27,774 nt of DNA, taken from NCBI GenBank assembly GCA_048885525.1, contig JBHLLP010000047.1, positions 1 to 27,774 on the forward strand, written 5' to 3'. The DNA comes from Candidatus Hermodarchaeota archaeon. Its GTDB lineage: Archaea; Asgardarchaeota; Lokiarchaeia; Sigyniarchaeales; SOKP01. Shown piece by piece: positions 4,894 through 19,050 of the stretch. The notes under the pieces were generated by a model. The model saw only the letters and a program-made list of their open reading frames with translations. It did not search any database and had not been told where the DNA came from. Position numbers and translations under genes: made by a program. Each line of letters begins with the position of its first letter. Position 1 is the first letter of the stretch.

Positions 4894-5931
4894 TTAAATA
4901 ATGATCATTTTGTCTTGAATAGGATTGTTCAATAAAATCCTAAAATATTCTAATTCATTTTTGAACATTACTTTCTCTAACTTTCCTTCAACTAATACAG
5001 TTTCTTTTTCTCTAGCTTGTTCACAAAAACGACCTCTGAATGAATTTATTTCACTTATATCATCGGTTTTAATATTCTCTAAATTAATATCAGAGTTGAG
5101 AATTGTTAAAGGATTTATTTTGTATGAACAAGGAGTAAAAATAGAATCTTCTGAGTTAATAATTTCTGCTTTAAGTTTAATTCTTCCAAGATTTTTGTAT
5201 TTATAATCATAAAAGTTTCCTTTCCAATCTTCAGGACTTTTTATATATCTAACGAAAAAATCTTTATCCATAAATTTGCCTTGATGTTGTTTTCTTTGTT
5301 CACTTTTAAGAAAATCTCCAAAAGGAATATCAGAACCACCAAATCTCCACTCGTAATGAATTTTATACTCATATTTATTATATTTTCGAATTTTATTGGA
5401 TTTTTTAAATAACCGTTCCAATTTTTCTTGAAAATTCAAACTTGCTTGTGTACCATATATTATTATATCAATGTCGGAATCTTTAGTATTTAATCCTACC
5501 ATTGTTGATCCTGTAATCCCTATTGAATCCTCAGAAAGGTTTCCTTGAGAAATAAATAATTCACATAATTCTCTAGAGCGTAGTTCTATACTAGATAACA
5601 AGTTTTTTTCTAATAGTTTTTTAAAAAAGATTCGAGGGGTATAAATTTTTTTTATTTCTTCCTTTTTAACTCCTTGGACTTCTAAATCAAGTTCTCTTGA
5701 AAAAAAAAGATAATTAGGATATTTTTCTCTCAACAGGGCATATCTTTCTTCAAGGTTGTAAATTTTTCTAAATTTAATATCGTCTTTTATCCGCTCTCCT
5801 TCTGGAGCTGGAAAAAATCGTAAAAAGCATATGATATATTCATCTGGATGGAGAAGACCTTTTACATCAAAAAACAAATGATCCTTTTTTGTTTCTATGT
5901 AGTCTCCTTCAATTCCTTGAATAAATTTCAT
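4894..5931 (-). CDS. Predicted nucleotidyltransferase (Pol-beta superfamily, COG1665-like)
   Basis: IGITGS...SDIDIIIYG catalytic signature. N-terminal EGD...FDVKGLLHP and C-terminal SFRGRFCEQA...VEGKLE are typical of this archaeal family. Confidence 0.75.
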   Translation of the reverse strand: MKFIQGIEGDYIETKKDHLFFDVKGLLHPDEYIICFLRFFPAPEGERIKDDIKFRKIYNLEERYALLREKYPNYLFFSRELDLEVQGVKKEEIKKIYTPRIFFKKLLEKNLLSSIELRSRELCELFISQGNLSEDSIGITGSTMVGLNTKDSDIDIIIYGTQASLNFQEKLERLFKKSNKIRKYNKYEYKIHYEWRFGGSDIPFGDFLKSEQRKQHQGKFMDKDFFVRYIKSPEDWKGNFYDYKYKNLGRIKLKAEIINSEDSIFTPCSYKINPLTILNSDINLENIKTDDISEINSFRGRFCEQAREKETVLVEGKLEKVMFKNELEYFRILLNNPIQDKMIII

Positions 5932-5951: not shown

Positions 5952-7109
5952 TTAATAATTTGAAGGCGTTTTGGTTTTAATTTTTGAGGGCGTTTTGGTT
6001 TTAATTGAAGGCGTTTTCTTCCTAATCTTTCTCAATTCTCTTTCAAATTCCCTTTTTTCATTTAGGAATCGTTGTTTATCTTTTGCTAATTTTTCTCTTT
6101 CACGTTTTATTGTATTTTTTTCACTTTCTAAGTTCGATTTTTGTTTTTCTAATTGTCTATATTCATTATTTAACCTGCTAAATTTTTCTTCTAAATTTGG
6201 AATTTTCCTATTTAAGGAAAAATACCTATTTTCAGCGCTAGGAATTTTTCTTTCCAATTCTTTTAGTTTTGCTTCTTGTTGTCGTCTTCTTTTTTCTAAA
6301 TCTTTAACATCTCTTTCTACTTTATCTCTATATTTTTTTAGATCTGCTTTTTTCTTATCAATTTCTCGAGTTTTAAGGTCAAGATCTTGCTTTTTATAAC
6401 GAGTCTTTTCTCTTTCTTCCTTTAATTTTTTCTTTTCCTCAGAAATTCTATTTTTTTCATCGTTAATTTCTCTCCGTAGATTATTAAGCTCCTTATTTAG
6501 ATTATCTCGATCTTTAGTTAAATTTTTAATTTCATTTCGTAATTCCATCAATTTAGACTCTAAATCATTGATAGTTCTTTCTAAAGCATTTTCTCTTCTT
6601 TCCATACCTGGAATTTTTGTTTTTATTTCCTTTATTCGTTTTTCTGTTCTTTCTTTTTCCCAATCTAAATTTTTTTTTTGATTAGCAATATCTTCTCTTA
6701 AATTATCTAATTTTTTTTGAAATCTTTCTAATTCAGCATTTTTTTGATCTAATTCTTCATTCTTACTCTTGATCTTTTCTCTAAATTGCCGTTCTTTAGT
6801 AAGTATTTCAATTTTTTGTTGATCTATTTGATTTTTCATTTTTTCTAGCTCGTTTTTTAAGTTATTACGCTGATCAAGAAGAAATTTAATTTTAAGTTCC
6901 TTTTCTTTCCTTTTCTTTTCAAGATCCTCAATGCTTTCTTTGTAATCTTCAACTTGATTAAAAACTTTTTCCCATTCGTTTTTTTCTTTAATTAGTTTGA
7001 TTCTTTCTTTTTTAATTCTTTTTAGTAATTTTTTATCTGGAATTGTTTCTAGTTCTTCATCTGGTGTTTTTTCTCGAATTTGATACTTAGGAATTGGTTC
7101 GTCGTTCAT
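5952..7109 (-). CDS. Long coiled-coil protein with KTPS-repeat tail
   Basis: About 330 aa of K/E/R/L-rich heptad-type sequence with almost no Gly or Pro and no ATPase motifs. Ends KKTPSIKTKTPSKIKTKTPSNY. Confidence 0.8.
   Translation of the reverse strand: MNDEPIPKYQIREKTPDEELETIPDKKLLKRIKKERIKLIKEKNEWEKVFNQVEDYKESIEDLEKKRKEKELKIKFLLDQRNNLKNELEKMKNQIDQQKIEILTKERQFREKIKSKNEELDQKNAELERFQKKLDNLREDIANQKKNLDWEKERTEKRIKEIKTKIPGMERRENALERTINDLESKLMELRNEIKNLTKDRDNLNKELNNLRREINDEKNRISEEKKKLKEEREKTRYKKQDLDLKTREIDKKKADLKKYRDKVERDVKDLEKRRRQQEAKLKELERKIPSAENRYFSLNRKIPNLEEKFSRLNNEYRQLEKQKSNLESEKNTIKREREKLAKDKQRFLNEKREFERELRKIRKKTPSIKTKTPSKIKTKTPSNY
5961..6017. repeat. Short imperfect tandem repeat (GA[A/G]GGCGTTTTGGTTTTAATT, ~2.5 copies) encoding the KTPS tail
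   Basis: Visible directly: tgaaggcgttttggttttaattttt gagggcgttttggttttaatt gaaggcgtttt. Confidence 0.85.
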
Positions 7110-7300: not shown

Positions 7301-7726
7301 ATGGGTTTTGATAATGAATTTGATGATGAATTTGATGAACAAGAATTTGATGAAGACTTAGAAGATTTAGATGAAGAAATTGAAGAAAAGCCGGAAGAGG
7401 ATAAAGAAGAACCTTTTGAAAAGATTCCTGAGGAAGAAGTTGAAGTAAAAACTCCTACTACTAAAGTTGTTTCTAGAGGTAAGAAACTTTCAGTATATTT
7501 TATGTCTACTATTGGTCCAGGTGAGAAAAAACAAAAACTGACTGTTAACGATGGAAATCTTGTAGGTGATATCAAAGAAACTGTAGCAAATTTATTTGGT
7601 TTAGTTCCTGCTGACTTTCATTTATCTTGTGGGGGTGTAACAATGGATGAAACTAATCCTTTAAGCGATTATAATATTTCTGACGGAGATGATATACTTT
7701 TAATTCCAGCTAGTATTGCTGGTTAA
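7301..7726 (+). CDS. Ubiquitin-like protein 1 with long acidic N-terminal extension, C-terminal AG
   Basis: The last 81 aa show a beta-grasp pattern (KLTV..D.K...LSDYNI.DGD.ILLIP) including the ubiquitin hexapeptide LSDYNI. Ends IPASIAG-stop. The N-tail is about 60 aa and D/E-rich. Confidence 0.88.
   Translation: MGFDNEFDDEFDEQEFDEDLEDLDEEIEEKPEEDKEEPFEKIPEEEVEVKTPTTKVVSRGKKLSVYFMSTIGPGEKKQKLTVNDGNLVGDIKETVANLFGLVPADFHLSCGGVTMDETNPLSDYNISDGDDILLIPASIAG
7307..7357 (+). repeat. Tandem TTTGAT-based repeats encoding FDNE-FDDE-FDEQE-FDED
   Basis: tttgataatgaa tttgatgatgaa tttgatgaacaagaa tttgatgaagac. Confidence 0.7.
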
Positions 7727-7775
7727 ATCTTTCTTAAAGAAATAATGGGAGTAAATATTAATTTTCGATTTTTTT

Positions 7776-8570
7776 TTAATTTTTATCTTTTCTTGAGGGA
7801 ATTAGAGCAATTTCATCGTCATCATCTATGCTGTAGTCTTTTATTTGTGAGGTTTCATCTAATAATATCCCTCCGGATGATAAGAGAAAAACTTGATCTT
7901 CATAATCAAATAGTAGTGCAATTTTCTCTTTAACAGCTCTTACTGATTCATCTATATCTATTATAATAATTTTTGTTTTCTCACCAGGTTCCAATAATGA
8001 TCGTATATATACGCGAATTTGATCTTCAATTTTTATAGAGCTCCTTGGTGACATATAAGGTATCACATCATTAATATTATTCCTATTTTCTAACATATTT
8101 TCGATTAGCTCTTTTCTTTCTTTTGGATCATAGTATATCATTTCTCTGATAAACAATATTTTATCCATTTTTGATAGATCCAGTAGGTTAATTTTATTTA
8201 ATTCTTCTTTACTTAAAATTGAAAAAATATATTTATCTATGATTGGCATATCCTTATAGGATTTATTTGATTCAACATATTCATCTAAAGAAGGCATGGC
8301 ATCAATATAATCTTCAACAATATTGAAAGATTTCTTTTGTATTAACTTCTGTTTAGTAGTATATTTTTTTTCTTTTAACATCTTGACTGAACTAGTTTTA
8401 GATTGTATTACGGTATAAATTGTACTAGTGGATAATACAGCAACACTACCTATAGTTAGAGTAAATAATAAGAGATTATTTTCTATATGAAATAGGAAAA
8501 ATAAAATATAGAGCAAAATACAAACAGTATAAAGAACGACAACACTTAATATTCTATAATTTTTTCTCAT
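7776..8570 (-). CDS. Membrane-anchored protein (2 N-terminal TM helices) with C-terminal ubiquitin-like domain
   Basis: Hydrophobic segments at about aa 7-29 and 33-55. The last ~80 aa share PGEK, LSSGG, DE, DY.I.D.D.I.LIP with the free Ubls but end SRKDKN (no Gly). Confidence 0.82.
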   Translation of the reverse strand: MRKNYRILSVVVLYTVCILLYILFFLFHIENNLLLFTLTIGSVAVLSTSTIYTVIQSKTSSVKMLKEKKYTTKQKLIQKKSFNIVEDYIDAMPSLDEYVESNKSYKDMPIIDKYIFSILSKEELNKINLLDLSKMDKILFIREMIYYDPKERKELIENMLENRNNINDVIPYMSPRSSIKIEDQIRVYIRSLLEPGEKTKIIIIDIDESVRAVKEKIALLFDYEDQVFLLSSGGILLDETSQIKDYSIDDDDEIALIPSRKDKN

Positions 8571-8654
8571 GATTTTTTATTAGATTATTTTCTGTAGTTA
8601 AAATATTTAATTTAACATTTAAATGGGATTGGAATAAAAGTGGAGTTTTTAATC

Positions 8655-9326
8655 TCATTCACCTTGAATCAATTTTCTTATATTAGTATATTTTTTTTGA
8701 TCTAATTTGTATATATGTCTATTTTTTTCTTTTTCAATTTTTATTAACTTTAGATCTGCTAAAATATCTATATATTTTTTTATAGTAGTATGATTCTTTT
8801 TCAGTCCATTTGCTATCTCTGTGATTTTTAATGCTTTATTTTCTATTTTCATAAACTCTATAATATTTTGAACAATTTTTTTTTTTAAATAATAGTGAAA
8901 CGGGTCAAGTGTTGGATCTGAATCGAATTTGAAGAAATATCTATGGTTATTGATTTGTTTTGATCTGACAAATTGAAATTTTTCTAAGCATGATAGATGC
9001 CATAAAGCTTGATTACTGCCAATTTTTAGAACCTTCATTATTTTATTAATATTTGATGGATTCTTTTTAATAAAATTGAATATCTCATTTCTTTTCGGAT
9101 GTTCTATTATATTATTTTTCATTAATTTTGTTCCAGGGATAATAACGCGTCTTTTAATGAAATCCTTCAGAATTAACTCTATTCTATTCTCATTTATATT
9201 AGGATTGTATCGCACTCTATTGCTTATATAGGAGATAATTTCTTTAATTGAAAAGAAGGTCTTCTTTGTTAAATACTCTCTTACTAATTTAAGAACAACA
9301 GATTCTGCATCATCAAAAGAACTCAT
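8655..9326 (-). CDS. Multi-winged-helix (ArsR/MarR-like) DNA-binding protein
   Basis: Repeated wHTH patterns: RNEIFNFIKKNP...ALWHLSCLEKFQFV and KITEIANGLKKNHTTIKKYIDILADLKLI. A probable third wHTH lies at the N-terminus. Confidence 0.8.
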   Translation of the reverse strand: MSSFDDAESVVLKLVREYLTKKTFFSIKEIISYISNRVRYNPNINENRIELILKDFIKRRVIIPGTKLMKNNIIEHPKRNEIFNFIKKNPSNINKIMKVLKIGSNQALWHLSCLEKFQFVRSKQINNHRYFFKFDSDPTLDPFHYYLKKKIVQNIIEFMKIENKALKITEIANGLKKNHTTIKKYIDILADLKLIKIEKEKNRHIYKLDQKKYTNIRKLIQGE

Positions 9327-9590
9327 AAAACTTTACTTCAAATAGATTGATTAATTTGGTTTTTATAACAATTTACTTTCTTTAAAACAACTTTCACAAT
9401 TTATATATATTGATAGGGGTTCATAAAATTTATAATATAATTTCTTAAGAATTCTAATTTTGATTTTTTTATTTTTAATAATGATTTGAAAACTTCAATA
9501 TTATTCCAATGGGTTTTATAATATCTTTTTAACGCCATTTTAATAAGTTTAATAAAATTAAAAATTAAAAAAAAAAAGGAAGTGATTTGA

Positions 9591-9923
9591 ATGAGTTTTG
9601 ATGAATTTGATGAAGATTTAGGAGGAAATGAACCAGTAAAATCTAAAACTCCAGCAGGTAAAACTCCGACTGGAGGAAAGAAATTAACTTTATATTTCAT
9701 GTCTACAATTGGTCCTGGTGAAAAGAAAGAGAAGTTAACTGTGAATGACAGCAATAGAGTAAGAGATATTAAACAAACATTAGGAAATTTATATGGACTT
9801 GACCCTAATGATTTCCACCTTTCTAGTGGAGGGGTCACTATGGATGAAAATAGTGATTTAAGAGACTATGATATAAATGATGGTGACGATATTCTATTAA
9901 TTCCAGCGAGTACAGCTGGTTAG
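9591..9923 (+). CDS. Ubiquitin-like protein 2 with acidic N-terminal extension, C-terminal AG
   Basis: 61 of 81 core residues are identical to the 7301 Ubl (manual count). Ends IPASTAG-stop and lies directly upstream of E1. Confidence 0.9.
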   Translation: MSFDEFDEDLGGNEPVKSKTPAGKTPTGGKKLTLYFMSTIGPGEKKEKLTVNDSNRVRDIKQTLGNLYGLDPNDFHLSSGGVTMDENSDLRDYDINDGDDILLIPASTAG

Positions 9924-9957
9924 ACTTATAAAACTTTCTTCATAAAATATAATAAAT

Positions 9958-9994
9958 GGGCAATAGCCCTTCAATTTTTTTTTTATTTTTTTTT
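9958..9994 (+). terminator. Small hairpin plus long T tracts between Ubl2 and E1
   Basis: GGGC-AATA-GCCC at 9958-9969, followed by T10-A-T9. Confidence 0.5.
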
Positions 9995-10001
9995 AAAACT
10001 T

Positions 10002-11261
10002 ATGGTGATAATATTGGATAAGGATTCAGATTTTTTCGCAAAAGAATTATCAGTGGAAGAAAGAGCCCTGTATGACCGCCAATTTCGTCTGGAAGGGTGG
10101 TCTCAGAAATTGGTAAAGAATTCTAGAGTTCTAGTAGTTGGTGTGGGAGGTTTAGGTTGTGAAATTGCCAAAAACTTGGCTATGCTTGGTGTTGGTCAGC
10201 TTGATCTTATCGATTTAGACATTATTGAGCATTCTAATTTAAATCGTCAAGTTCTTTTTACAGGTGCAAAGCTAGGAGAACCTAAGGCAATTGTTGCTGC
10301 TCGTAAGCTAAAAGAAATTAATCCTAATATTATTGTTAAGGGATACCACACCTCTCTAGAACGATTGAACCCAGCACTTTACCAAGCTGCGGATGTTGTT
10401 ATCGGAGGCCTTGATTCTATGAACGCACGTCTGAATTTAAATGCACAATGTATAAGATTTAAAAAGCCATTAGTAGATGGAGGTGTATCTGGTTATCACG
10501 GTCATGTATATACAGTTTTTCCTTATAAAAATGCGTGTTATGAATGCAATCCATTACCTATAGGTGAGTCTGATGAAATGGCTGCTTGTACAGTAGTAGG
10601 AATCCCTCGAAAAAGGATTCATTGTGTTTTTAAAGGAGATATGGTCTTTAGAGAAAAATTTGATAGAGATCCAAATCCAAAAGATGTAAATGATATAGAA
10701 TTCATTCAAAAGGTTGCAAATGAATTAGTAATTGAGCATAATTTCTTACCCGAATATACTCAGGACGATATTGTAAAAATCATTGATAGACATGATCCTG
10801 GTATAATAACTATAAATGCCGTTATTTCTGCTTTACAATCACATGAAGCAACCAAAATCCTTCATTGGAAAAAAGGACATAAAGGATTAGGTGAACCTAT
10901 TAAAAGTTATGTGATTTATAATGCAATTACAATGAAGTTTTATCATATTGAAAAAAAAAGAAATCCAGAATGTCCTCAGTGTAGTAAAAACGTTCGACGA
11001 GTATCTATAAAATTGAGATCTGAATCGCCTTGCATAAATATAATAAAGATATTAGAGAAGAATGGATATAAATTAGATAGAGATTCTGAACCAATTTTGA
11101 CTTTACAAGACTTTAATGATATTATAATGGTCGATTTACAGAAGAATCCAATTGAAAATGGTTTAAGAAATTACGAATTTGTAACAGTTGCAGGGTTTAA
11201 AGGGGGAGAAATTTTTGTAACCTTAAAATTAAAACAAAATTTGAATCAAAAAAGATTTTAA
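10002..11261 (+). CDS. Ubiquitin-activating enzyme E1 (ThiF/MoeB family, UBA2/UBA3-like)
   Basis: LYDRQ, GVGGLG, DLDIIEHSNLNRQ, Zn motifs CYEC and CPQC, catalytic loop AACTVVGIPRKRIHC (Cys196), and a C-terminal ~80 aa probable ubiquitin-fold domain. Confidence 0.92.
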   Translation: MVIILDKDSDFFAKELSVEERALYDRQFRLEGWSQKLVKNSRVLVVGVGGLGCEIAKNLAMLGVGQLDLIDLDIIEHSNLNRQVLFTGAKLGEPKAIVAARKLKEINPNIIVKGYHTSLERLNPALYQAADVVIGGLDSMNARLNLNAQCIRFKKPLVDGGVSGYHGHVYTVFPYKNACYECNPLPIGESDEMAACTVVGIPRKRIHCVFKGDMVFREKFDRDPNPKDVNDIEFIQKVANELVIEHNFLPEYTQDDIVKIIDRHDPGIITINAVISALQSHEATKILHWKKGHKGLGEPIKSYVIYNAITMKFYHIEKKRNPECPQCSKNVRRVSIKLRSESPCINIIKILEKNGYKLDRDSEPILTLQDFNDIIMVDLQKNPIENGLRNYEFVTVAGFKGGEIFVTLKLKQNLNQKRF

Positions 11262-11340
11262 ATTAATATAATAAAAAACAATAAAAATTTAAACAAAAAA
11301 TTTCAATATAAAATTAGATATAATAAAAAGGGTTGAGAAA

Positions 11341-11868
11341 ATGAGTATAAGAAGTAGTCGTATTTCCCGCGATGTTGCGGGATTAAAGAAAATGCAGAAA
11401 GAGGGTAATATTGTTCAACTACAACCATTTAATCCTAAAAGGAAGAGTATTAATCATTTAGCAATTTCATTTAGAGGCCCCAAAGGTACTGCTTATGCAG
11501 GAGGTCTTTTTAGATTAGAAATGAAATTCCCTGCTCAATATCCTAGACAACCCCCTTTTGTTAGATTACATACACCAATTTGGCATCCAAATTTTTGGCC
11601 AAAACCATCTGAATATAAAGGCCAAAGAAATATATGTTTAGCATTAGTAGATCCTTCGTTAGTTGGTAAAAAAGGGGGCTGGAGTCCCTCAAAAACAGCA
11701 GTTACAGTTGTCCAGGCAATCATTGCAATGTTAAATACACATGGTAAATATGTAAATCCTACCGATGTTTTTAATAAAAAAGCAGCGGTTGAAATGATGA
11801 AAAATCCTAAATTTTTCGAGAAAAAAGTAAAAAATCTTGTTAAGAAGTATGCTAATAAAAAATGGTGA
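11341..11868 (+). CDS. Ubiquitin-conjugating enzyme E2 (UBC fold)
   Basis: GPKGTAYAGGLF, FPAQYPRQPP, IWHPN...NICL (Cys99), WSP and N..AA motifs. Confidence 0.95.
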   Translation: MSIRSSRISRDVAGLKKMQKEGNIVQLQPFNPKRKSINHLAISFRGPKGTAYAGGLFRLEMKFPAQYPRQPPFVRLHTPIWHPNFWPKPSEYKGQRNICLALVDPSLVGKKGGWSPSKTAVTVVQAIIAMLNTHGKYVNPTDVFNKKAAVEMMKNPKFFEKKVKNLVKKYANKKW

Positions 11869-12692
11869 TATTTTCAATGGAAGATAAGGAATCAGCTAAT
11901 AATTCAATCAAAGATACAATAAAGAGGAAGATAAAAGAAAAAATAAAACAAGAATTGTTAGATGAAATCTGTGAAGAGCTTGCGTTAGAAGAAGATGAAT
12001 TAACAGAGGAAATCACTTCAATACTTACAAAAAAGTCCTCTAGTAAGTCAATAATAAAACTTACAAAGATACCTTCAGAAGAAATTGTAGAAAAAAAAGA
12101 GGTTGAAATTCAAAAAGAAGAAAAGATTCAAAAGGAAATTTATATTTCGGTAAAAGCAATCCTTAAAATAGCGAGTCATGCACTTAAATATGCCAATTCT
12201 CAGATTCAAAGAGAAAAATGGGTTGAGGTTATAGGGCTTCTTGCCGGAAAAATAGAAAAAAGTAATGGTATCTTACATATTGAAGATGCTTATCCGATGG
12301 GACATGGTACAGCTGTTTATGCTGAAATTAAAGACTATAAAAACTATGCTAGAGCTTTCCAAGATATTAAAAAACAAAAATTATTTATATGTGGGTGGTA
12401 TCATTCTCACCCAAGCTACGGATGTTTCTTAAGTTCAGAAGATATGGGCACACAAGCGAGATATCAAAAACTTTGGGACAAATCTGTGGCTCTTGTTATC
12501 GATCCTTACCAAATCGATGGTAAATCCACAGGATTTGAAATATATAAAGCGGATCTTAGAAGTAAAACATGGTATCCTTTAGTATATGGAATTAAAGGAT
12601 CACTAGATGTTAAGATGCTTCCAGAAGTTTTAAAATTCATGAATCCTATAATTGAAGGGAGAGCTGTTTATCTCGAATATGATGAAGATTGA
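11862..12692 (+). CDS. JAMM/MPN+ metallo-isopeptidase (Rpn11/CSN5-like)
   Basis: ISVKAILKIASHA, EVIGLL, GWYHSHPSYGCFLSSED (E...HxH-x7-S-x2-D) and ALVIDP. Start overlaps the E2 stop; an alternative ATG occurs five codons downstream. Confidence 0.93.
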   Translation: MVIFSMEDKESANNSIKDTIKRKIKEKIKQELLDEICEELALEEDELTEEITSILTKKSSSKSIIKLTKIPSEEIVEKKEVEIQKEEKIQKEIYISVKAILKIASHALKYANSQIQREKWVEVIGLLAGKIEKSNGILHIEDAYPMGHGTAVYAEIKDYKNYARAFQDIKKQKLFICGWYHSHPSYGCFLSSEDMGTQARYQKLWDKSVALVIDPYQIDGKSTGFEIYKADLRSKTWYPLVYGIKGSLDVKMLPEVLKFMNPIIEGRAVYLEYDED

Positions 12693-12721
12693 AACAACGG
12701 AAATTTGGTGATTATTAAACT

Positions 12722-13906
12722 ATGCCTAAATATAAAGCTGTCGCATTAACAATGACAATATTTTCATTGATAGGCATAATACACAGTATAATTCTAGATT
12801 CTTTTAATGTATTTGTGAGCTGGCTATTAATAGGAATATGGTTAATTTTTTCTCTCAAAGTTTTAAAAAATATTAAACAATATCGAGAATATCGGAGTCC
12901 TCATAATACAGCTTTCTTTATTATTAGTCCTGTTTTTGTGGGTATATTTTATTCAATATGGGGAAATTTTACTGGTTTGTTAGGAGAAAATCTTCTATTA
13001 AGTTCAGATGTATACTTAAGTTGGTGGAGCATTTTATTTGGATTTCCTTATGTTTTATATGGTTCGATATCTTTATTTCGTTGTTTTAAAAAATATAATG
13101 TAATCTATTTTGGAACGAAATCTGTAAATGCTAGGAAATTTGGGTATATTTTAGGATTTTCAATATTTTCTTTCATAATTGTTTATTGGATAAGTTTTTA
13201 TTCACTTATTGACTTCTATGAATCTTTATTGATACCTATTCATTTCTTAATTGATTTAAATCTTTTATTTTTGCTAATTGGTAGTTTATTAATAACAATT
13301 GTTTTTGGTTTTTTCGGAGCTCGAACCCAATTACCTCAGTTGACTAGAGATTATATAACAAGACGCACAACTAGATTGAATGATTTAATGTCGCCTAATC
13401 GACGTACAGTAAGAAATCGTAGCACAATACGATCATCTCCAACACCTTCAACTAGAACAGTATCTCGTACTTCAAGATCAGTTTCAAATTCCTCAAGATC
13501 AACACCTACTGCGCATTTACAATCAAGAAGTTCTAGAGTTAAAACAACTACTCGAACTACAAGCAGTAGTAGAACAGGAAAACCAATTAGAAGTAGTCAT
13601 AAAACCATGAAACAAATAAATTTTAAGTTATATAGACCAAAAGCAGGAAATTTATCATTAGAAGATTTTAAATGCATATTTTGCTTTAAGCTGCCCGAAA
13701 TTCCTAAGGATAATGCTAGAGGAATAATCTTATGCCCAAGTTGTAGATATCCCGCTCATGCTGATGAATTCAAAGACTGGCTTAAAAGTTCTCATCTTTG
13801 TTCAAGATGCAATGCCACTATTCCGTCAAATTATAGGAAAAATCCTAAAATTATCAGTGTAAAAAATTATATAATCATTTATAAGGGCTTATTAAGGAGT
13901 GGATAA
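12722..13906 (+). CDS. Polytopic membrane protein with C-terminal RING-variant Zn finger (putative E3 ligase)
   Basis: About six hydrophobic segments in aa 5-200, an S/T/R-rich linker, then CIFC-x16-CPSC-x4-H-x2-E-x3-W-x6-CSRC. Last gene of the E1-E2-JAMM run. Confidence 0.8.
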   Translation: MPKYKAVALTMTIFSLIGIIHSIILDSFNVFVSWLLIGIWLIFSLKVLKNIKQYREYRSPHNTAFFIISPVFVGIFYSIWGNFTGLLGENLLLSSDVYLSWWSILFGFPYVLYGSISLFRCFKKYNVIYFGTKSVNARKFGYILGFSIFSFIIVYWISFYSLIDFYESLLIPIHFLIDLNLLFLLIGSLLITIVFGFFGARTQLPQLTRDYITRRTTRLNDLMSPNRRTVRNRSTIRSSPTPSTRTVSRTSRSVSNSSRSTPTAHLQSRSSRVKTTTRTTSSSRTGKPIRSSHKTMKQINFKLYRPKAGNLSLEDFKCIFCFKLPEIPKDNARGIILCPSCRYPAHADEFKDWLKSSHLCSRCNATIPSNYRKNPKIISVKNYIIIYKGLLRSG

Positions 13907-13940: not shown

Positions 13941-14900
13941 TTAATAGCTAATTTTCAGTTTTTTTTTTAAATCTCCTACCGTTGTTTTCAATTCAGCATA
14001 AACATTATGAGGATGAATAGATTCAAGACTTTCAATTTTAAATTTAACTTTAAATTGATCTTCCAGATTTGGAAATTTTCTTAAAATGAAATTCTTTGCC
14101 ATTTCTCTTATAACATCTTCAGAAAAAAGAGGTTTTAAATGTGCACTTCTCACTAATTCGGCTTCTTCTGGTCTTTTTAAAACAGATTGAATTTTACCAC
14201 TCATAGATTGTTCTATAACATCAATAATATCTAAAACATCTATTTTATGGTTAGTTAAATCTTTAATCTGAATAATAATTGTCCCGATTGATCTTTGATT
14301 ATGTGAAGAAAAAGGAAGAATATTCAATAATTTATTGAGATCTTCTTCGGAAACAGTTATATCTTTTCTAGATTTAACTACTTCTTCTGCATATTCCAAA
14401 GAAAGCTCTTTAGCGCATGGACAAACAGTCATACCCACTGCACTAGCACCAATAAAATAATTATAATCAAGATAACCTGAAATATCTCGACTTGCTTTTA
14501 CAAAAGAACTGATATCATATGATTTTTGAATAACCCTCTTATCATTTTCTCTTACTTGAACAATAATCTTACCTTCTAATTTTACTTCAGCTTTAGAAGT
14601 ATAAGGGTGCCTTTCCATTAATTTCTTGACAATCCTATCTCCAACAAGCTCAATTGTTGGAGTAGGTTTAAAAATTACTTCATTTATGACTTCCTCTATA
14701 GTTTCTGAAGTTCGGGACATATGAATTCCACGCTGCTCAGCGGGCAGATTGATTAAAGCGGAAATTTTAGGGTAGAAAGAATACCTTTTACTCTCTTGAA
14801 CTATTTCAACTTTTTTTTCCAATTCTACAATACCAACCTTATCAATTGGAATATAAATTCCAGAGCCAGAATCTTGTAAATCAGTTTTAAATTTAGGAAT
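13941..14900 (-). CDS. mptA: GTP cyclohydrolase MptA (FolE2/IB family)
   Basis: QRGIHMSR, GMTVCPCA, SHNQRS, LKRPEE, PLFSED and ESIHPHN motifs. The family N-terminal motif (DLQD...IPIDKVG) lies in frame upstream of the ORF-track TTG at 14822, so the start is extended to a probable ATT at 14900. Confidence 0.88.
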   Translation of the reverse strand: MPKFKTDLQDSGSGIYIPIDKVGIVELEKKVEIVQESKRYSFYPKISALINLPAEQRGIHMSRTSETIEEVINEVIFKPTPTIELVGDRIVKKLMERHPYTSKAEVKLEGKIIVQVRENDKRVIQKSYDISSFVKASRDISGYLDYNYFIGASAVGMTVCPCAKELSLEYAEEVVKSRKDITVSEEDLNKLLNILPFSSHNQRSIGTIIIQIKDLTNHKIDVLDIIDVIEQSMSGKIQSVLKRPEEAELVRSAHLKPLFSEDVIREMAKNFILRKFPNLEDQFKVKFKIESLESIHPHNVYAELKTTVGDLKKKLKISY

Positions 14901-14993
14901 TAATAGCCACCAGTATCAAAAATTAATTTATTAATGTTCTATTCTTTAAAAGGATTAGAAATATTTAAAATGATTTAGATTGTTTATGAATTA

Positions 14994-16163
14994 ATGGCTA
15001 AAAAATACATCTCTAGCAAATATGCTTTAATTGGAGAGAATTTAGATTTAAAGCAGAATGTAAATATTGAAATTGATCAAAATGGAAGAATTATAAATAT
15101 TTCTTATGATGATATATGTAATAGTGTCGAAATTCTACCCAATCATCAGACATTCTTAATGATTCCAGGTTTTATAAACTCACATGTCCATATTGGAGAT
15201 AATTTCGCAAAAGAATTGGGTTTTAATAAAGATTTGAGGGAAATAGTTGCTCCACCATTTGGTATAAAGCATAAATTATTAAGACAAACCCCAGAAGATA
15301 TAAAAATTAAAGGAATTCATAATGCCGCTTTAGAAATGTTTTCAAATGGTATTACTTTTTTCATTGATTTTAGAGAGGGAGGTGTAGAAGGAATAGATCT
15401 TTTAAAAAGAGCGCTAGCAATTCATAAAATTAATTATTTAATCTTAGGGCGTTTTATGGATGAAAGTGAAATAGATTCTGTTTTTGACAGAGCAGATGGA
15501 ATTGGATTATCTAGTTATAAACAAATTAATTCTAAAAATAAAAGATTTATAGTATCTGCTAAACAAAAGTTCAAAAAACTTATAGCATGTCATTGTGCAG
15601 AGAACACTCGTAATGTTGATCTTATAAATAATATATTTATTGATGATATTGTAGATGTAATCGTCCATGGAACAAAATTTGTGAAAAGTGATTTGGAAAA
15701 AATAGTAAATAACAATAAATCTCTAATTTTATGTCCTCGTTGTAATGGATATTTTGGAGTTGGATTTCCACCTATCAGTGAGATTTTAGAGTTGAAAATA
15801 CCAATATCATTAGGAACGGATAATTTAATGATAAATAACACTGATTTATTAGAAGAGATACGATATCTTTATCGTATCTCGAGAGTATTATGCAATTATA
15901 ATACAAAACTTCAAATTTCCTCCAAAGATTTATTGAAGATGGTAACTTTCAATGCTGCAAAAAATTTTCACCTTGAAAGAGAATTTGGTACAATTTCAAA
16001 AGGTAAATTTGCTGATTTTTTTTTAATCGATCTTTGTGATCCAAATCTATATTCTTCCCAATTAGATTCTAATAATATTTATAATATCATTACTCAAAGA
16101 ACAAAATCAGAAAATATTAAAAAAACATATATCAAGGGAGAATTAGTATTTGAAAGAAAATAA
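14994..16163 (+). CDS. Metal-dependent amidohydrolase (cytosine/guanine deaminase-like)
   Basis: PGFINSHVHIGD, HCAE, IVHG, LGTDN and GTISKGKFADF motifs. Confidence 0.85.
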   Translation: MAKKYISSKYALIGENLDLKQNVNIEIDQNGRIINISYDDICNSVEILPNHQTFLMIPGFINSHVHIGDNFAKELGFNKDLREIVAPPFGIKHKLLRQTPEDIKIKGIHNAALEMFSNGITFFIDFREGGVEGIDLLKRALAIHKINYLILGRFMDESEIDSVFDRADGIGLSSYKQINSKNKRFIVSAKQKFKKLIACHCAENTRNVDLINNIFIDDIVDVIVHGTKFVKSDLEKIVNNNKSLILCPRCNGYFGVGFPPISEILELKIPISLGTDNLMINNTDLLEEIRYLYRISRVLCNYNTKLQISSKDLLKMVTFNAAKNFHLEREFGTISKGKFADFFLIDLCDPNLYSSQLDSNNIYNIITQRTKSENIKKTYIKGELVFERK

Positions 16164-16821
16164 TCGCCCCTATATAATTTTAAGTGCAGCAATGACTATC
16201 GATGGAAAGATTGCATCAAAAACAGGAGATCCTGAATTATCAGATGATCAAGATTGGAAAGAAGTTCATAAATTAAGATCTCAAGTAGATGCCATAATCG
16301 TTGGAAAAAATACAATTTTGAAAGATAACCCAAAACTTCATATTAAATTTCATGAACATAAGGGATATAAAAGAATTGTTGTAGATAGTAATCTTTCAAT
16401 TCCTATTAATTCAAATGTTGTTTCGTTTCAACTAGAAACATACCCTACAATAATATGTACTACAGAAAATGCTCCTTTACAGAGAATTAAAGAATTTGAA
16501 TCAAAAGGCGTAAAAATATTGAAGGTTGGAGACAGAAAGCTAGTAAATATATTGGATCTTATGCCCAGACTCTACAATTTAGGTATTCAGAAGATCTTAT
16601 TAGAGGGGGGTGGTACACTAAATTGGAGCTTTATTGAAAAGAATTTAGTAGATGAAATTAGGTTAACAATTGCTCCATGGATTATTGGAGGTAAAGATGC
16701 CACAACATTAGTCGAAGGTACAGGTTTTGAAAGCATGGCTCAAGGACAAAGGTTTAAATTGCTTGAAATTTTAAATAGGGATAATTATGTTATGTTAAGA
16801 TACAAAAAGAATGAATTATGA
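16150..16821 (+). CDS. arfC: 2,5-diamino-6-ribosylamino-4(3H)-pyrimidinone 5'-phosphate reductase (stand-alone RibD C-terminal domain)
   Basis: RPYIILSAAMTIDGKIA, VHKLRSQVDAIIVGKNTILKDNP, ILLEGGGTLNWS and APWIIGG. No deaminase domain. Confidence 0.88.
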   Translation: MKENNRPYIILSAAMTIDGKIASKTGDPELSDDQDWKEVHKLRSQVDAIIVGKNTILKDNPKLHIKFHEHKGYKRIVVDSNLSIPINSNVVSFQLETYPTIICTTENAPLQRIKEFESKGVKILKVGDRKLVNILDLMPRLYNLGIQKILLEGGGTLNWSFIEKNLVDEIRLTIAPWIIGGKDATTLVEGTGFESMAQGQRFKLLEILNRDNYVMLRYKKNEL

Positions 16822-17942
16822 AACATAAGAGTGAAATTACAAGTTTTAAAAAACTTACGTTGAAACAGATTAAAGAAAAAGTAAAAAAAGTAAAAGATCA
16901 ATTACCGAGTGATGAGAAAAAGATAATAACTTATTCAAAAAATTTCACACTTTCACTATCAAACTATTGTATTAATAAATGTGGGTATTGTTCTTATAAC
17001 TTTACAATTCCTAAATTAAATGATGAATATAATGTTATATTGCTTAAAAATGAACAAATGGTATCATTAGTTCAAAAGGCTCTTCAAAATGATTGTAAAG
17101 AAGCCTTGATTATGTCGGGAGAACGTCCTGGAAGTTTTCTTGAAGTTCAAAATGAATTAAAAAACATAAATTGTTTAGATTTTATAAATTTTGTAAAAGA
17201 TGTTTGTAGGTATTTACTTGAGTTTAATGTTCTACCTCATACAAATATAGGATATTTAACTTATGATGAAATAAAGAATTTAAAAAAATACAATGCAAGC
17301 ATGGGATTAATGCTTGAAAGTACAAGTTTGAGACTTTTTGAAAAAGGTGAAGTACATGAACATTCTCCTGGAAAACTACCAAATAGAAGAATAGAGCATA
17401 TAAAAAATGCAGGAAAATTAAAAATTCCATTCACTACAGGTATCTTATTAGGTATTGGAGAAAATATTGAAGATATCATAAGCGATTTATTTTTAATTAA
17501 GAATATTAATGATGAATATCAACATATTCAAGAATTTATAATTCAGAATTTTGTAAATAAACAAAATATTCCATACCAGCCTAAAAAGTCAGTTTCTATT
17601 AAGGAAATGCTTAAAATCGTAGGATTTGCTCGCATTATTTTTGAGAATGAAATTGCCGTCCAAGTTCCACCAAATCTTATCTCAGGTTTTGAAAGAGAAT
17701 TTATCGATATGGGTATCGATGATTTTGGTGGAATTTCTCCTTTTTCATTAGATTATATAAATCCTGAAAATCAGTGGCCTCAAATAGATGATTTATATAA
17801 AATTTGCAAAGAAGAAGGTTATAATCTCAAAGAGAGACTCCCAATCTATAACAAATTTATATATAAAGAAGGTTTTTGTCCAGAAAATATTAAAAAAGTA
17901 ATAGATAATATAAACTTAGATGATAAATACTCAGTTTTCTGA
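16818..17942 (+). CDS. cofG: FO synthase subunit CofG
   Basis: ITYSKN, radical-SAM CINKCGYC, LPHTNIG, ASMGLMLE, PFTTGILLGIGE, QVPPNL, DFGGISP and NPENQWP. Confidence 0.92.
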   Translation: MKHKSEITSFKKLTLKQIKEKVKKVKDQLPSDEKKIITYSKNFTLSLSNYCINKCGYCSYNFTIPKLNDEYNVILLKNEQMVSLVQKALQNDCKEALIMSGERPGSFLEVQNELKNINCLDFINFVKDVCRYLLEFNVLPHTNIGYLTYDEIKNLKKYNASMGLMLESTSLRLFEKGEVHEHSPGKLPNRRIEHIKNAGKLKIPFTTGILLGIGENIEDIISDLFLIKNINDEYQHIQEFIIQNFVNKQNIPYQPKKSVSIKEMLKIVGFARIIFENEIAVQVPPNLISGFEREFIDMGIDDFGGISPFSLDYINPENQWPQIDDLYKICKEEGYNLKERLPIYNKFIYKEGFCPENIKKVIDNINLDDKYSVF

Positions 17943-19050
17943 AAATATTAACCCAAAAGTAAAGAAGATTCTAAAGAAGGCATTAGAGTCAGATGAAATA
18001 AGCTCTGAAGAAGCCTTAGAGATTTTAAAGGTAAAGGGAAAAGAATTTTTTGCTTTACAATATGTAGCTGATCAGATCTGCTATGAAAAAAAGCAAAATA
18101 TTGTAACTTTTGTTATAAACAGAAATATAAATTTCACAAACATTTGTTATCAACGCTGTAAATTCTGTTCATTCAGTTTACCAGCTACAGATCCTAATGC
18201 TTTTTTACTTACTATTGATCAAATTAGAGAAAAAGTAATAGAGGCTAAAAATTTTGGATGTACGGAAGTCTGTATACAAGGAGGTATAAATCCTAAGATA
18301 AATTTTGATTTCTACTTAGATGTTCTTAAAACTGTTAAAAATATTGATCCAAGAATACATATACATGCATTTTCTCCTCAAGAAATCTTTTATATGTCAA
18401 AGTTATTTGAAAACTCGATAGTAGACACCCTTAGAGAATTAAAAAAAGCAGGATTAGATTCAATTCCAGGAACAGCTGCAGAGATATTGGTTGATGAAAT
18501 AAGAGAAATAATTTGTCCAAAAAAGGTTAATACTTCTCAATGGAAGGAAATCATAACTACTGCCCACAATTTAAAGATTCCAACAACATCTACAATAATG
18601 TATGGGCATATTGAGAACCTGAGTGATAGGGTTAAGCATTTGGAAATTCTAAGAGAAATACAAAAAGAAACTAAGGGTTTTACTGAATTTGTACCCTTAC
18701 CTTTCGTAAAAGAAAATCCAATTTTATCGCAACTTAAAAAATTTCCTTTAAAACCTAGCTATGGAATGGATGATTTAAAACTATTTTGTGTTGCACGGTT
18801 ATTCTTAAATAATTACATTGATAATGTTCAATGTAGTTGGGTAAAATTAGGACCAAGTTTTGCCCAAGTGGCTTTAAATTATGGAGTTAATGACTTCTCT
18901 GGAACATTAATGGAAGAAAATATTTCAAAAAGTGCTGGCGCTGAATTTGGCGAGTATTTATCTCCAGAAGAAATTGTAAAAATAATAATTAACGCAGGAA
19001 AAAGACCCGCACAAAGAGACACAATATATAATATTATAAAATATTATTAA
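17920..19050 (+). CDS. cofH: FO synthase subunit CofH
   Basis: VTFVINRNINFTNICYQRCKFCSF, EVCIQGG, HAFSPQE, PGTAAEIL, TIMYGHIE, EFVPLPF, QCSWVKLG and GTLMEENIS. Adjacent to cofG. Confidence 0.92.
   Translation: MINTQFSENINPKVKKILKKALESDEISSEEALEILKVKGKEFFALQYVADQICYEKKQNIVTFVINRNINFTNICYQRCKFCSFSLPATDPNAFLLTIDQIREKVIEAKNFGCTEVCIQGGINPKINFDFYLDVLKTVKNIDPRIHIHAFSPQEIFYMSKLFENSIVDTLRELKKAGLDSIPGTAAEILVDEIREIICPKKVNTSQWKEIITTAHNLKIPTTSTIMYGHIENLSDRVKHLEILREIQKETKGFTEFVPLPFVKENPILSQLKKFPLKPSYGMDDLKLFCVARLFLNNYIDNVQCSWVKLGPSFAQVALNYGVNDFSGTLMEENISKSAGAEFGEYLSPEEIVKIIINAGKRPAQRDTIYNIIKYY

Follow-up and report, generated by a model that had tools for sequence, protein, structure and literature searches.

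A conserved Asgard operon with an Ala-Gly ubiquitin-like modifier and a membrane RING-type protein points to ubiquitin-family conjugation at the cell membrane of archaea

Introduction

Do Asgard archaea tag proteins at a membrane with a ubiquitin-like modifier? The question is raised by a locus found at positions 7301 to 13906 of a 27,774-nt stretch of DNA from Candidatus Hermodarchaeota archaeon (contig JBHLLP010000047.1, assembly GCA_048885525.1, G+C ~28%), hereafter the window. In this locus, genes for ubiquitin-like proteins (Ubls) stand next to those for an activating enzyme (E1), a conjugating enzyme (E2), an isopeptidase of the JAMM type, and a multi-pass transmembrane protein with a C-terminal RING-type domain (TM-RING). 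It is accepted that eukaryotic ubiquitylation has its prokaryotic forerunners in the ubiquitin operons of Asgard archaea and Aigarchaeota, and those described combine a Gly-Gly modifier with a small soluble RING protein.

We report that the five genes Ubl-E1-E2-JAMM-TM-RING form a conserved Asgard operon, which is likely to encode a ubiquitin-family conjugation pathway acting on the cytoplasmic side of the cell membrane. This proposal is built on gene content, catalytic motifs, the fold and conservation of the RING domain, synteny and distribution; from these we infer the biochemical steps, the topology and the accessory roles. That the tagging is sited at a membrane is well supported by the genes present.

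Results

A five-gene operon conserved across the phylum

A check of open reading frames (ORFs) returned eight ORFs between 7301 and 13906, at the coordinates first assigned to them. They are listed here with the Pfam matches or other evidence on which each description is based.

7301..7726, + strand: Ubl1, 141 aa (PF00240, 2.2e-5)
7776..8570, - strand: membrane-anchored Ubl-domain protein, 264 aa (PF00240, 8.4e-5)
8655..9326, - strand: double winged-helix protein (ArsR/SdpR/HrcA-type), 223 aa, presumed regulator (Pfam HTH_5, HrcA_DNA-bdg)
9591..9923, + strand: Ubl2, 110 aa (PF00240, 8.6e-7)
10002..11261, + strand: E1, 419 aa (ThiF, 3.8e-60)
11341..11868, + strand: E2, 175 aa (UQ_con, 4.2e-25)
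11862..12692, + strand: MPN+/JAMM isopeptidase, 276 aa (JAB, 5.5e-17)
12722..13321, + strand: TM-RING protein (394 aa), six-helix membrane domain, aa 1-200 (AF2 model)
13322..13636, + strand: TM-RING protein, R/S/T-rich linker, aa 201-305 (composition)
13637..13906, + strand: TM-RING protein, variant RING domain, aa 306-394 (family profile, AF2, Foldseek)

The initial annotation had recognised here two free Ubls, a membrane Ubl, a winged helix-turn-helix (wHTH) regulator and co-oriented E1, E2, JAMM and polytopic RING genes, and both the ORFs and the Pfam searches agree with it. Ubl2 opens the co-oriented run Ubl2-E1-E2-JAMM-TM-RING on the + strand, within which the E2 gene runs 7 nt into the JAMM gene (11862-11868). 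The locus had also been called complete, a word that holds for its gene content only.

Taken whole, the 394-aa TM-RING protein matched no model in Pfam or NCBIfam. Its close homologues, 382 in number, are all recorded as 'hypothetical protein' in Lokiarchaeota/Promethearchaeota assemblies. When 1.84 billion representatives were searched exhaustively, 116 clusters were found, with full-length relatives of the same size down to ~24% identity over the matched stretches. In relatives at 69%, 58%, 29%, 26% and 24% identity, the TM-RING gene directly follows the JAB gene, and comes after Ubl-E1-E2 where the contig allows. A scripted comparison of 19 loci spanning several of the phylum's families found the order Ubl-E1-E2-JAB-TM-RING in all of them, one or two genes being intercalated between Ubl-E1 and E2-JAB-RING in two cases. 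Of 400 genomes of the phylum, 267 match the family profile, and the matches are full-length in at least 12 family-level groups. The initial annotation had made the membrane genes part of the conjugation system; synteny shows that they do occur together with E1 and E2 in relatives, and the claim stands. In the complete genome CP070831.1 the locus is split into two parts lying ~100 kb apart (loci L001 and L044). One part contains the coiled-coil gene described below, Ubl1, membrane-Ubl, wHTH, Ubl2 and a 136-aa E1 remnant; the other is an intact Ubl-E1-E2-JAB-TM-RING operon by genes for Sec61-beta, a ribophorin-I-like protein and a GT4 glycosyltransferase.

The free modifiers end in Ala-Gly

Ubl1 and Ubl2 are 70% identical, and both terminate in IPAS[IT]AG at the stop codon (IPASIAG in Ubl1, IPASTAG in Ubl2). 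The single-Gly, non-GG modifier proposed at the outset is therefore confirmed, the end being Ala-Gly in both free Ubls. As in other archaeal operonic systems, a ubiquitin-fold modifier with a C-terminal Gly for adenylation is present, though here it is preceded by Ala. Three copies of one such Ubl domain had been counted; this is right for the locus, and the genome contains a fourth, encoded by a solitary gene (C35:5235-5567, minus strand, 110 aa, 88% identical to Ubl2, ending IPASTAG) whose neighbours are unrelated membrane-protein genes. The acidic tails attributed to the modifiers exist as well, at the N-terminus and not at the C-terminus where they had been placed. Ubl1 starts with an acidic F-D-repeat tail (aa 1-61, 28 D/E among these 61 residues) containing one V-x-x-K-T-P motif, followed by the ubiquitin-fold domain at aa ~62-141. 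Ubl2 has a short acidic N-tail with two KTP motifs, and its ubiquitin-fold domain spans aa ~31-110. The last Lys/Arg of Ubl2 stands 19 residues ahead of its C-terminus, and digestion of a conjugate with trypsin would leave these 19 residues (DYDIN...STAG) as the remnant.

Against the ubiquitin model PF00240, whose cut-off is 25.4 bits, Ubl2 scores 29.1 bits, above the cut-off, Ubl1 24.6 and the anchored copy 22.7. Sequence matches of Ubl2 in the PDB are ubiquitin, and searches with the Ubl, whether by its single sequence, by a profile of 22 family members or by language-model features, lead to ubiquitin, ubiquilin UBLs and Rad60-SLD. UFM1 was absent among the 60 best rows listed for the Ubl profile. 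The Pfam Ufm1 model (PF03671) gave no match at E<=0.1 on the Ubls, its best match genome-wide (E 0.24) being located elsewhere.

In the alignment of the Ubl family the STAG end is near-invariant, and every Ubl in the 19 loci ends in (L)IP[AVSH]STAG plus 0-4 further residues. Since this end is kept across the 19 loci, Ala-Gly is a family trait rather than a local mutation. In some lineages the short C-terminal extensions imply that the modifier is processed, and the obvious candidate for this step is the linked JAMM; in Caldiarchaeum, modifier processing is carried out by CsRpn11 (PMC6043591).

Copies of the Ubl domain were also seen at the C-terminus of two longer proteins, of 580 aa (L027:15072-16814, - strand, ending IPSSRAG) and 296 aa (L032:11770-12660, + strand, ending IPSSTAGFF). 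Both fusions look conjugatable or processable.

E1, E2 and JAMM

Judged from their sequences, E1, E2 and JAMM are of canonical, eukaryote-like types. The E1 has the adenylation domain and catalytic-Cys insertion of archaeal operonic systems, with a Gly loop at residues 47-52, NLNRQ at 79-83, zinc-binding CxxC pairs at 179-182 and 324-327, and Cys196 within the insertion. Among solved structures it is closest to UBA3, UBA2 and the second half of UBA1 (~1e-37; UBA3 1.2e-37), UBA5 coming at 4e-16. The alignment with UBA3 covers residues 35-335 and places 'AACTV', which contains Cys196, on 'PMCTI' of UBA3. A C-terminal extension of ~85 aa is possibly a ubiquitin-fold domain.

The E2 likewise has what is found in archaeal operonic systems, a UBC fold with HPN (residues 82-84) and a catalytic Cys (Cys99). 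It carries a loop insertion past this Cys, its nearest solved relatives are Ubc15 and Cdc34/UBE2R-type E2s, and its 90%-identity cluster has 538 members. As for the Rpn11-like MPN+ JAMM that belongs to such clusters, it is present with a complete E-x(n)-HxH-x7-S-x2-D motif (Glu122, His181, His183, Ser191, Asp194), behind a low-complexity N-terminal segment of 90 aa. The best solved relative of this protein is the Rpn11-like protein of Caldiarchaeum (6fjv, 1.5e-17), followed by Rpn11 and CSN5.

A variant RING domain closes the operon

Archaeal operonic systems use a small soluble RING protein as E3. None is encoded here, and the only RING of the locus sits on the six-helix TM-RING protein. In 56 diverse members of the TM-RING family, the most distant of which have 16-25% full-length identity, the only invariant residues are P306, C318, C321, C338, C341, H346, E349, W353, C360 and C363. 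They define, between flanking helices, the pattern C-x2-C-x11-16-C-x2-C-x4-H-x2-E-x3-W-x6-C-x2-C, in which seven Cys/His are invariant, ligand 6 is an invariant Glu, and ligands 3/4 are C-x2-C instead of C-x-H.

A deep profile of the domain retrieved the RING-H2 of RNF24 (E=6.1e-6), then RNF4, Arkadia/RNF165, EL5, listerin and RNF38, and, weakly, the RINGs of gp78 and HRD1 (E 0.12-0.7). This depth was needed for RING matches to appear: a shallow profile built from close relatives retrieved IFT144 alone (E 0.036), and the isolated finger had only marginal Pfam matches, to zf_UBZ, Zn_ribbon_15 and zf-RING_16. When aligned with RNF24, H346 falls at ligand 5, E349 at ligand 6 (Cys in RNF24) and W353 on the E2-contact Trp. 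The hydrophobic E2-contact residue expected of a RING ligase is thus present: W353 is invariant in the family and lines up with the Trp in RNF24, Arkadia and RNF165.

An AF2 model of the domain, computed from the family alignment, reached a pLDDT of 90.4. When it was compared to the PDB with Foldseek, ranks 1-50 were RING/U-box E3 domains (among them 3lrq, Rad18, Bmi1/Ring1b, RNF146, TRIM32, HRD1, RNF165, RNF4 and RNF8), save RING-like fingers of IFT-A and GATOR2 and two spliceosome chains. On these profiles and this model, we accept that the C-terminal domain has a RING-type fold, and we regard TM-RING as a candidate ligase.

Other ORFs of the genome matching the RING profile at 2e-7 to 2e-2 were C32:27508-28035, C25:1610-3661 and three ORFs on C61. 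None is linked to E1 or E2 genes.

A six-helix membrane domain without recognisable relatives

The polytopic nature of the RING protein, noted from the start, was borne out by modelling. AF2 gave for residues 1-215 a confident model (pLDDT 93.5, pTM 0.87) with six long helices (2-25, 28-56, 64-80, 101-123, 137-162 and 179-197), ahead of the C-terminal RING. Lys/Arg-rich loops follow helices 2, 4 and 6, which by the positive-inside rule suggests an N-in/C-in topology, with the RING in the cytoplasm alongside E1 and E2. The linker between the two domains (aa 201-305) is basic and contains 20 R, 20 S and 20 T per 105 residues; its length and sequence differ among relatives, its character being retained.

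Every Foldseek match of the membrane-domain model to the PDB had E>1. Aligned exhaustively with 48,161 chains, the model scored highest against an unrelated helical protein, at a Z of 7.9 that is within the noise range of the tool, and a shape search of the ESM Atlas gave TM-scores <=0.44. No Hrd1 or gp78 chain was among the matches listed, a missing match being no proof of a different or new fold. Language-model look-alikes of TM-RING beyond its own cluster were only bacterial Prok-RING_1/2 clusters (0.76-0.82, below the lead threshold).

A lineage-specific presumed regulator and membrane-anchored Ubl

The anchored Ubl domain (aa ~183-258) is 35% identical to Ubl1. The protein ends in IPSRKDKN and, having no terminal Gly, it cannot be adenylated there and is not conjugatable. 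At its N-terminus lies a single long hydrophobic stretch (aa 4-51), which from the sequence we read as a two-helix hairpin, followed by a helical middle part. The wHTH gene lies upstream on the same strand; its 223-aa product has ArsR/HrcA-type winged helices twice in Pfam and matches NCBIfam HTH_metalloreg at 1.4e-9.

Of 135 genomes of the family, 102, belonging to four genera, encode the N-terminal 185 residues of the anchored protein; a fifth genus has weak matches to this part, on other, longer proteins. The membrane-Ubl and TM-RING genes usually share a contig, ~4.7 kb apart. Among the loci examined that have the membrane-Ubl gene, wHTH adjoins it in 7 of 7 and a free STAG Ubl is present in 6 of 7. 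So constant a neighbourhood argues for a functional tie, compatible with a scaffold, a decoy or another role; most likely, the anchored copy would be a membrane scaffold or a decoy for Ubl-recognising proteins. The wHTH/membrane-Ubl pair and the long-tailed Ubl1 are both outside the phylum-wide core.

In another genus, the pair stands beside a free Ubl and a 222-aa TM-RING-like ORF. This is the case at L046:6360-9302 (genome G170), where membrane-Ubl, wHTH and a free Ubl ending STAGYE are found by a 222-aa ORF matching TM-RING at 1e-33, which from its sequence may be either a shorter paralogue or a fragment. We also noted that residues ~30-170 of the anchored protein match frames of 400-1500 aa, some of them stop-interrupted, in related genomes (E 1e-8 to 1e-19), which suggests a shared, unnamed domain in the helical middle part.

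A coiled-coil neighbour shares a rare motif with the modifier tails

Outside the interval first annotated, and divergent from Ubl1, lies the following gene.

5952..7109, - strand: coiled-coil protein, 385 aa (only coiled-coil Pfam noise)

This protein contains four [I]-x-x-K-T-P motifs (aa 11-16, 362-367, 369-374 and 377-382), and its orthologues retain KTP motifs at either end. In 9 of the 19 loci, from the window's own and other families, a homologue of the coiled-coil gene is the divergent neighbour of the Ubl gene, and the same holds for further loci. On the modifier side, the N-tail of the Ubl family has a near-invariant psi-x-[ST]-K-[TV]-P that follows a conserved acidic F-D/E-rich start.

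KTP occurs in the genome at 1.7e-4 per residue. Only eight ORFs have at least two copies, the 110-aa Ubl2 included, and the coiled-coil protein, with its four, is the only one of 5368 ORFs with at least three. It is also the only ORF of the genome with more than one copy of [IVM]xxK[TV]P. An attractive reading of the psi-x-x-K-T-P shared by Ubl tails and coiled-coil protein is, by analogy with SUMO, that of an acceptor-lysine or docking motif, and the coiled-coil protein would then be a candidate built-in substrate or docking partner.

Other ubiquitin-type genes of the genome

A second cluster, at C37:27311-29676, encodes a JAB protein of 165 aa, a short E1 of 294 aa, an HPN/Cys E2 of 194 aa and a divergent 89-aa Ubl ending KVIGGC, and has no adjacent RING gene. 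As this cluster is of the GG type, the operon of the window is a second, separate system beside a Gly-Gly one. The best PF00240 match of the genome (35.8 bits) is a ubiquitin-like ORF ending ATQAGGI, found at a contig end (C17:30-218, minus strand). A solitary E2 of 172 aa is encoded at C16:59218-59625. Finally, a 790-aa protein with repeated winged helices, encoded on the minus strand of C70 (L043:433-2805), matches the PCI, E3_UFM1_ligase (UFL1) and DDRGK models and has a Vps28-like C-terminus; it lies on another contig, unlinked to the Ubl operon, and is probably of the kind listed as 'UFL1/DDRGK1-like' in tables of Asgard eukaryotic signature proteins (ESPs).

Flanking genes

The remaining genes noted in the window are the following.

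1769-2923, - strand: FtsZ gene, 3 kb upstream of the locus
4894-5931, - strand: nucleotidyltransferase-domain protein, 345 aa (NTP_transf_2, 1.3e-6)
13941-19050, downstream: GTP cyclohydrolase of FolE2/MptA type (GCHY-1), amidohydrolase and further genes

In the related loci L002, L044, L047 and L048 the nucleotidyltransferase-domain gene again adjoins the coiled-coil gene, and it may be part of the same conserved neighbourhood. GCHY-1 is a constant neighbour inside the genus. For some of the genes at 13941-19050, the counterparts in L002 match RibD_C and two radical-SAM models, one of CofH type (F420-related).

Discussion

A conjugation pathway at the cell membrane

How could the products of the operon work together? 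The modifier would be made ready for use, ending in Ala-Gly, and in relatives the Rpn11-like JAMM would trim the forms that have 1-4 extra residues. The E1 would adenylate the terminal Gly and hold the modifier as a thioester on Cys196, from which it would move on to Cys99 of the E2. The C-terminal RING of TM-RING, with Trp353 at the E2-contact position, would bind the charged E2 and promote transfer of the modifier to lysines of membrane-near proteins, and JAMM would reverse the reaction by removing the mark. To this, the genus and three neighbouring ones add the divergent wHTH/membrane-Ubl unit and a second paralogue of the Ubl, whose acidic tail is long.

Several points weigh against such a pathway. 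The Ala-Gly end would have to be accepted by a canonical-type E1. In the RING domain, the Glu at ligand 6 and the C-x2-C at ligands 3/4 mean that binding of two zincs in a cross-brace is not established. Single-sequence Pfam RING models stay below significance, and the Foldseek E-values of the RING model are modest (5e-3 and weaker, with TM-scores ~0.5 and probabilities up to 1.00). The RING-like fingers of IFT144/WDR19 and GATOR2 that were also retrieved are not known to be ligases. As for the membrane part, its topology is deduced from the positive-inside rule, and the domain has no recognisable relative, hence no clue to the substrate.

A bolder version of the proposal, which we hold to be possible though doubtful, is that the Ala-Gly operon is a second, membrane-sited and motif-directed branch of archaeal tagging. 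E2 and RING would attach the Ubl to the lysine of psi-x-x-K-T-P, the N-tail of the Ubl would form chains as in SUMO, the coiled-coil protein would be a built-in substrate or filament-like scaffold, and the anchored Ubl would recruit the machinery. If true, this would be an Asgard forerunner of consensus-directed Ubl modification and of polytopic RING ligases.

Alternative explanations

The succession of polytopic domain, linker and C-terminal RING is that of Hrd1/gp78, and the initial annotation had envisaged a pathway akin to ERAD, the degradation associated with the endoplasmic reticulum (ER). TM-RING would then be a Hrd1-type ligase recognising, and perhaps extracting, misfolded membrane or secreted proteins for Cdc48 and the proteasome, with the anchored Ubl as a Herp/Usa1-like scaffold. 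The weak gp78/HRD1 profile matches (E 0.12-0.7), the HRD1 RING among the Foldseek rows, the Ubc15 and Cdc34-type E2s with loop insertion among the best relatives of the E2, and the operon by Sec61-beta, ribophorin-I-like and GT4 glycosyltransferase genes in one complete genome all fit this picture. The Sec61-beta neighbourhood is, however, that of one genome only; no gene for Hrd3/SEL1L, Derlin, Usa1/Herp or a Cdc48-type protein is found in the window or the 19 loci; the membrane domain matched no solved fold (Foldseek E>1; best Z 7.9), a missing match that is not a refutation; and archaea have no ER, for which the cell membrane would have to substitute. What survives of the ERAD-like claim is the layout, as an analogy only; the linked partners fail it, nothing in the locus points to retrotranslocation, and we judge this quality-control pathway unlikely. 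The finger could also be no ligase at all but a zinc-ribbon or RING-like binding module, for instance a receptor for the Ubl or for proteins tagged with it, or a structural finger as in IFT-A/GATOR2, the E2 transferring the modifier directly. Ubc9 does transfer directly to motif-bearing substrates, and the conserved psi-x-x-K-T-P could permit such E3-independent recognition; the Glu at ligand 6, the non-standard C-x2-C at ligands 3/4, the marginal matches to zf_UBZ, Zn_ribbon_15 and zf-RING_16, and the high rank of IFT144/WDR19 fingers point in the same direction. Against this, the strongest profile matches are active RING-H2 E3s (RNF24 at 6e-6, RNF4, Arkadia, EL5), the E2-contact Trp is invariant, and the gene is fixed at the end of the E1-E2-JAMM run across deep divergence, which makes a non-ligase finger decidedly improbable.

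The other two alternatives concern the identity of the system itself. A UFMylation-like pathway had been suggested in the initial annotation, and the Ala-Gly Ubl might be the Asgard counterpart of UFM1, perhaps acting on membrane-bound ribosomes. It has one terminal Gly and the I-P-x4-G spacing; Ufm1 homologues have been reported in nine Asgard clades, some within longer proteins (PMC12962969), which fits the fused Ubl copies seen here; and the 790-aa winged-helix protein of the genome matches UFL1, DDRGK and PCI models. These UFL1-like matches are, however, in a Vps28-ended protein with repeated winged helices on another contig, the linked ligase candidate being a RING and not UFL1. The Pfam Ufm1 model is silent in the genome (best E 0.24, elsewhere), and single-sequence, profile and language-model searches with the Ubl return ubiquitin or Rad60-SLD. 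The E1 has a catalytic-Cys insertion and is nearer to UBA3/UBA2/UBA1 (1e-37) than to UBA5 (4e-16); the E2 is a canonical HPN UBC, and UFC1 had no match in the genome, the control genomes being silent as well. The suggestion is not sustained by a UBA3-like E1, a canonical E2 and a Ubl scoring in the ubiquitin family; on these three components we reject UFM1 identity for the modifier system, a UFM1-type pathway being very improbable. Least credible is a role in antiviral defence, as a module like the bacterial Bil or CBASS-Cap2, to which we give hardly any weight. Gene content does resemble bacterial Ubl defence operons, the E1 adenylation domain matches the PADLOC E1-E2 (Cap2) models at 6e-17, and the JAB protein weakly matches PADLOC JAB models. 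But these matches cover generic adenylation and JAB cores only, and there is none for the E2, Ubl, RING or membrane-Ubl proteins; the E1 and the E2 are separate proteins of canonical, eukaryote-like type; and an operon present in about two thirds of the genomes of the phylum, with genus-constant neighbours (GCHY-1 downstream, the coiled-coil gene upstream), does not follow the pattern of a defence island. A defence identity was rejected on the PADLOC result and on distribution.

Significance

A membrane RING ligase candidate acting with an Ala-Gly tag, conserved across much of the phylum, would put membrane-sited Ubl tagging before the endomembrane system. On this proposal, ubiquitin-style tagging at a membrane probably predates eukaryotes. 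The set of proteins is small and defined, with five core proteins and a candidate substrate bearing a rare motif, and could show how membrane RING ligases and Ubl specificity arose. Conjugate proteomics is feasible in cultured Lokiarchaeia.

Comparison with known systems

With the UFM1 pathway (UBA5, UFC1, UFL1/DDRGK1) the window system has in common a single C-terminal Gly, the I-P-x4-G spacing and a membrane-sited ligase step. In contrast to that pathway, its E1, E2 and E3 are of the Ub/NEDD8/SUMO-type classes and its Ubl scores as ubiquitin family. The Ufm1 homologues of nine Asgard clades were found by structure comparison in a 2026 paper (PMC12962969); should they be the same as the STAG Ubls, the modifier would be partly known under another name, and the system would still not be of UFM1 type by sequence, E1 and E2.

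Hrd1/synoviolin and gp78/AMFR resemble TM-RING in layout, with a multi-pass domain and a cytosolic RING that has an E2-contact Trp, and there is weak similarity at the level of the RING. TM-RING differs from them by its six helices (theirs have eight), the absence of detectable membrane-domain similarity, an R/S/T-rich linker, a variant set of RING ligands, and the lack of a linked Hrd3 or Derlin. The membrane-anchored Ubl protein would be at most an analogue of Herp/Usa1.

SUMO is attached to lysines of a consensus motif, and its chain-forming lysine is in a disordered N-tail. By analogy, the disordered N-tail of the window modifier has a conserved motif lysine, and the motif recurs on a neighbouring candidate substrate. 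The motif is psi-x-x-K-T-P and not psi-K-x-E, and the likeness to SUMO in the acceptor role of its lysine would be one of analogy only.

In Asgard archaea themselves, clusters of Gly-Gly ubiquitin, E1, E2 and RING E3 have been tied to ESCRT (PMC9192718; for the Helarchaeia cascade, bioRxiv 10.1101/2023.07.25.550441), and a discrete ubiquitin gene region is known in Lokiarchaeota (PMC9192718; bioRxiv 10.1101/2023.07.25.550441). These ESCRT-linked clusters are from the same phylum and use the same enzyme classes as the window operon. They differ from it in that their ubiquitin is a di-glycine one with a short propeptide, and their RING E3 is soluble and binds UEV-Vps23, as against an Ala-Gly modifier and a membrane RING. 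In the literature on Asgard and archaeal ubiquitin operons, supplementary asCOG tables aside, we found neither a membrane RING nor an Ala-Gly modifier.

Of the systems characterised so far, the operon of Candidatus Caldiarchaeum subterraneum comes nearest; its ubiquitin, E1-like, E2-like, small RING finger and Rpn11-like proteins were reconstituted in vitro (PMC5654768; Rpn11, PMC6043591). The two share an operonic ubiquitin-fold modifier; in each the E1 has a catalytic-Cys insertion and the E2 is a UBC protein, and both include a RING-type protein as well as an Rpn11-like JAMM. The window modifier ends in Ala-Gly, within a family-wide STAG, instead of Gly-Gly, and has a conserved acidic N-tail bearing KTP. 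Its RING is the C-terminal domain of a protein with six transmembrane helices, with Glu at ligand 6, whereas that of Caldiarchaeum is small and soluble; and the lineage of the window adds a membrane-anchored Ubl protein and a regulator. We conclude that what is new with respect to known archaeal ubiquitylation operons is the Ala-Gly modifier and the polytopic, variant-RING ligase candidate, together with the lineage-specific unit of regulator and membrane Ubl.

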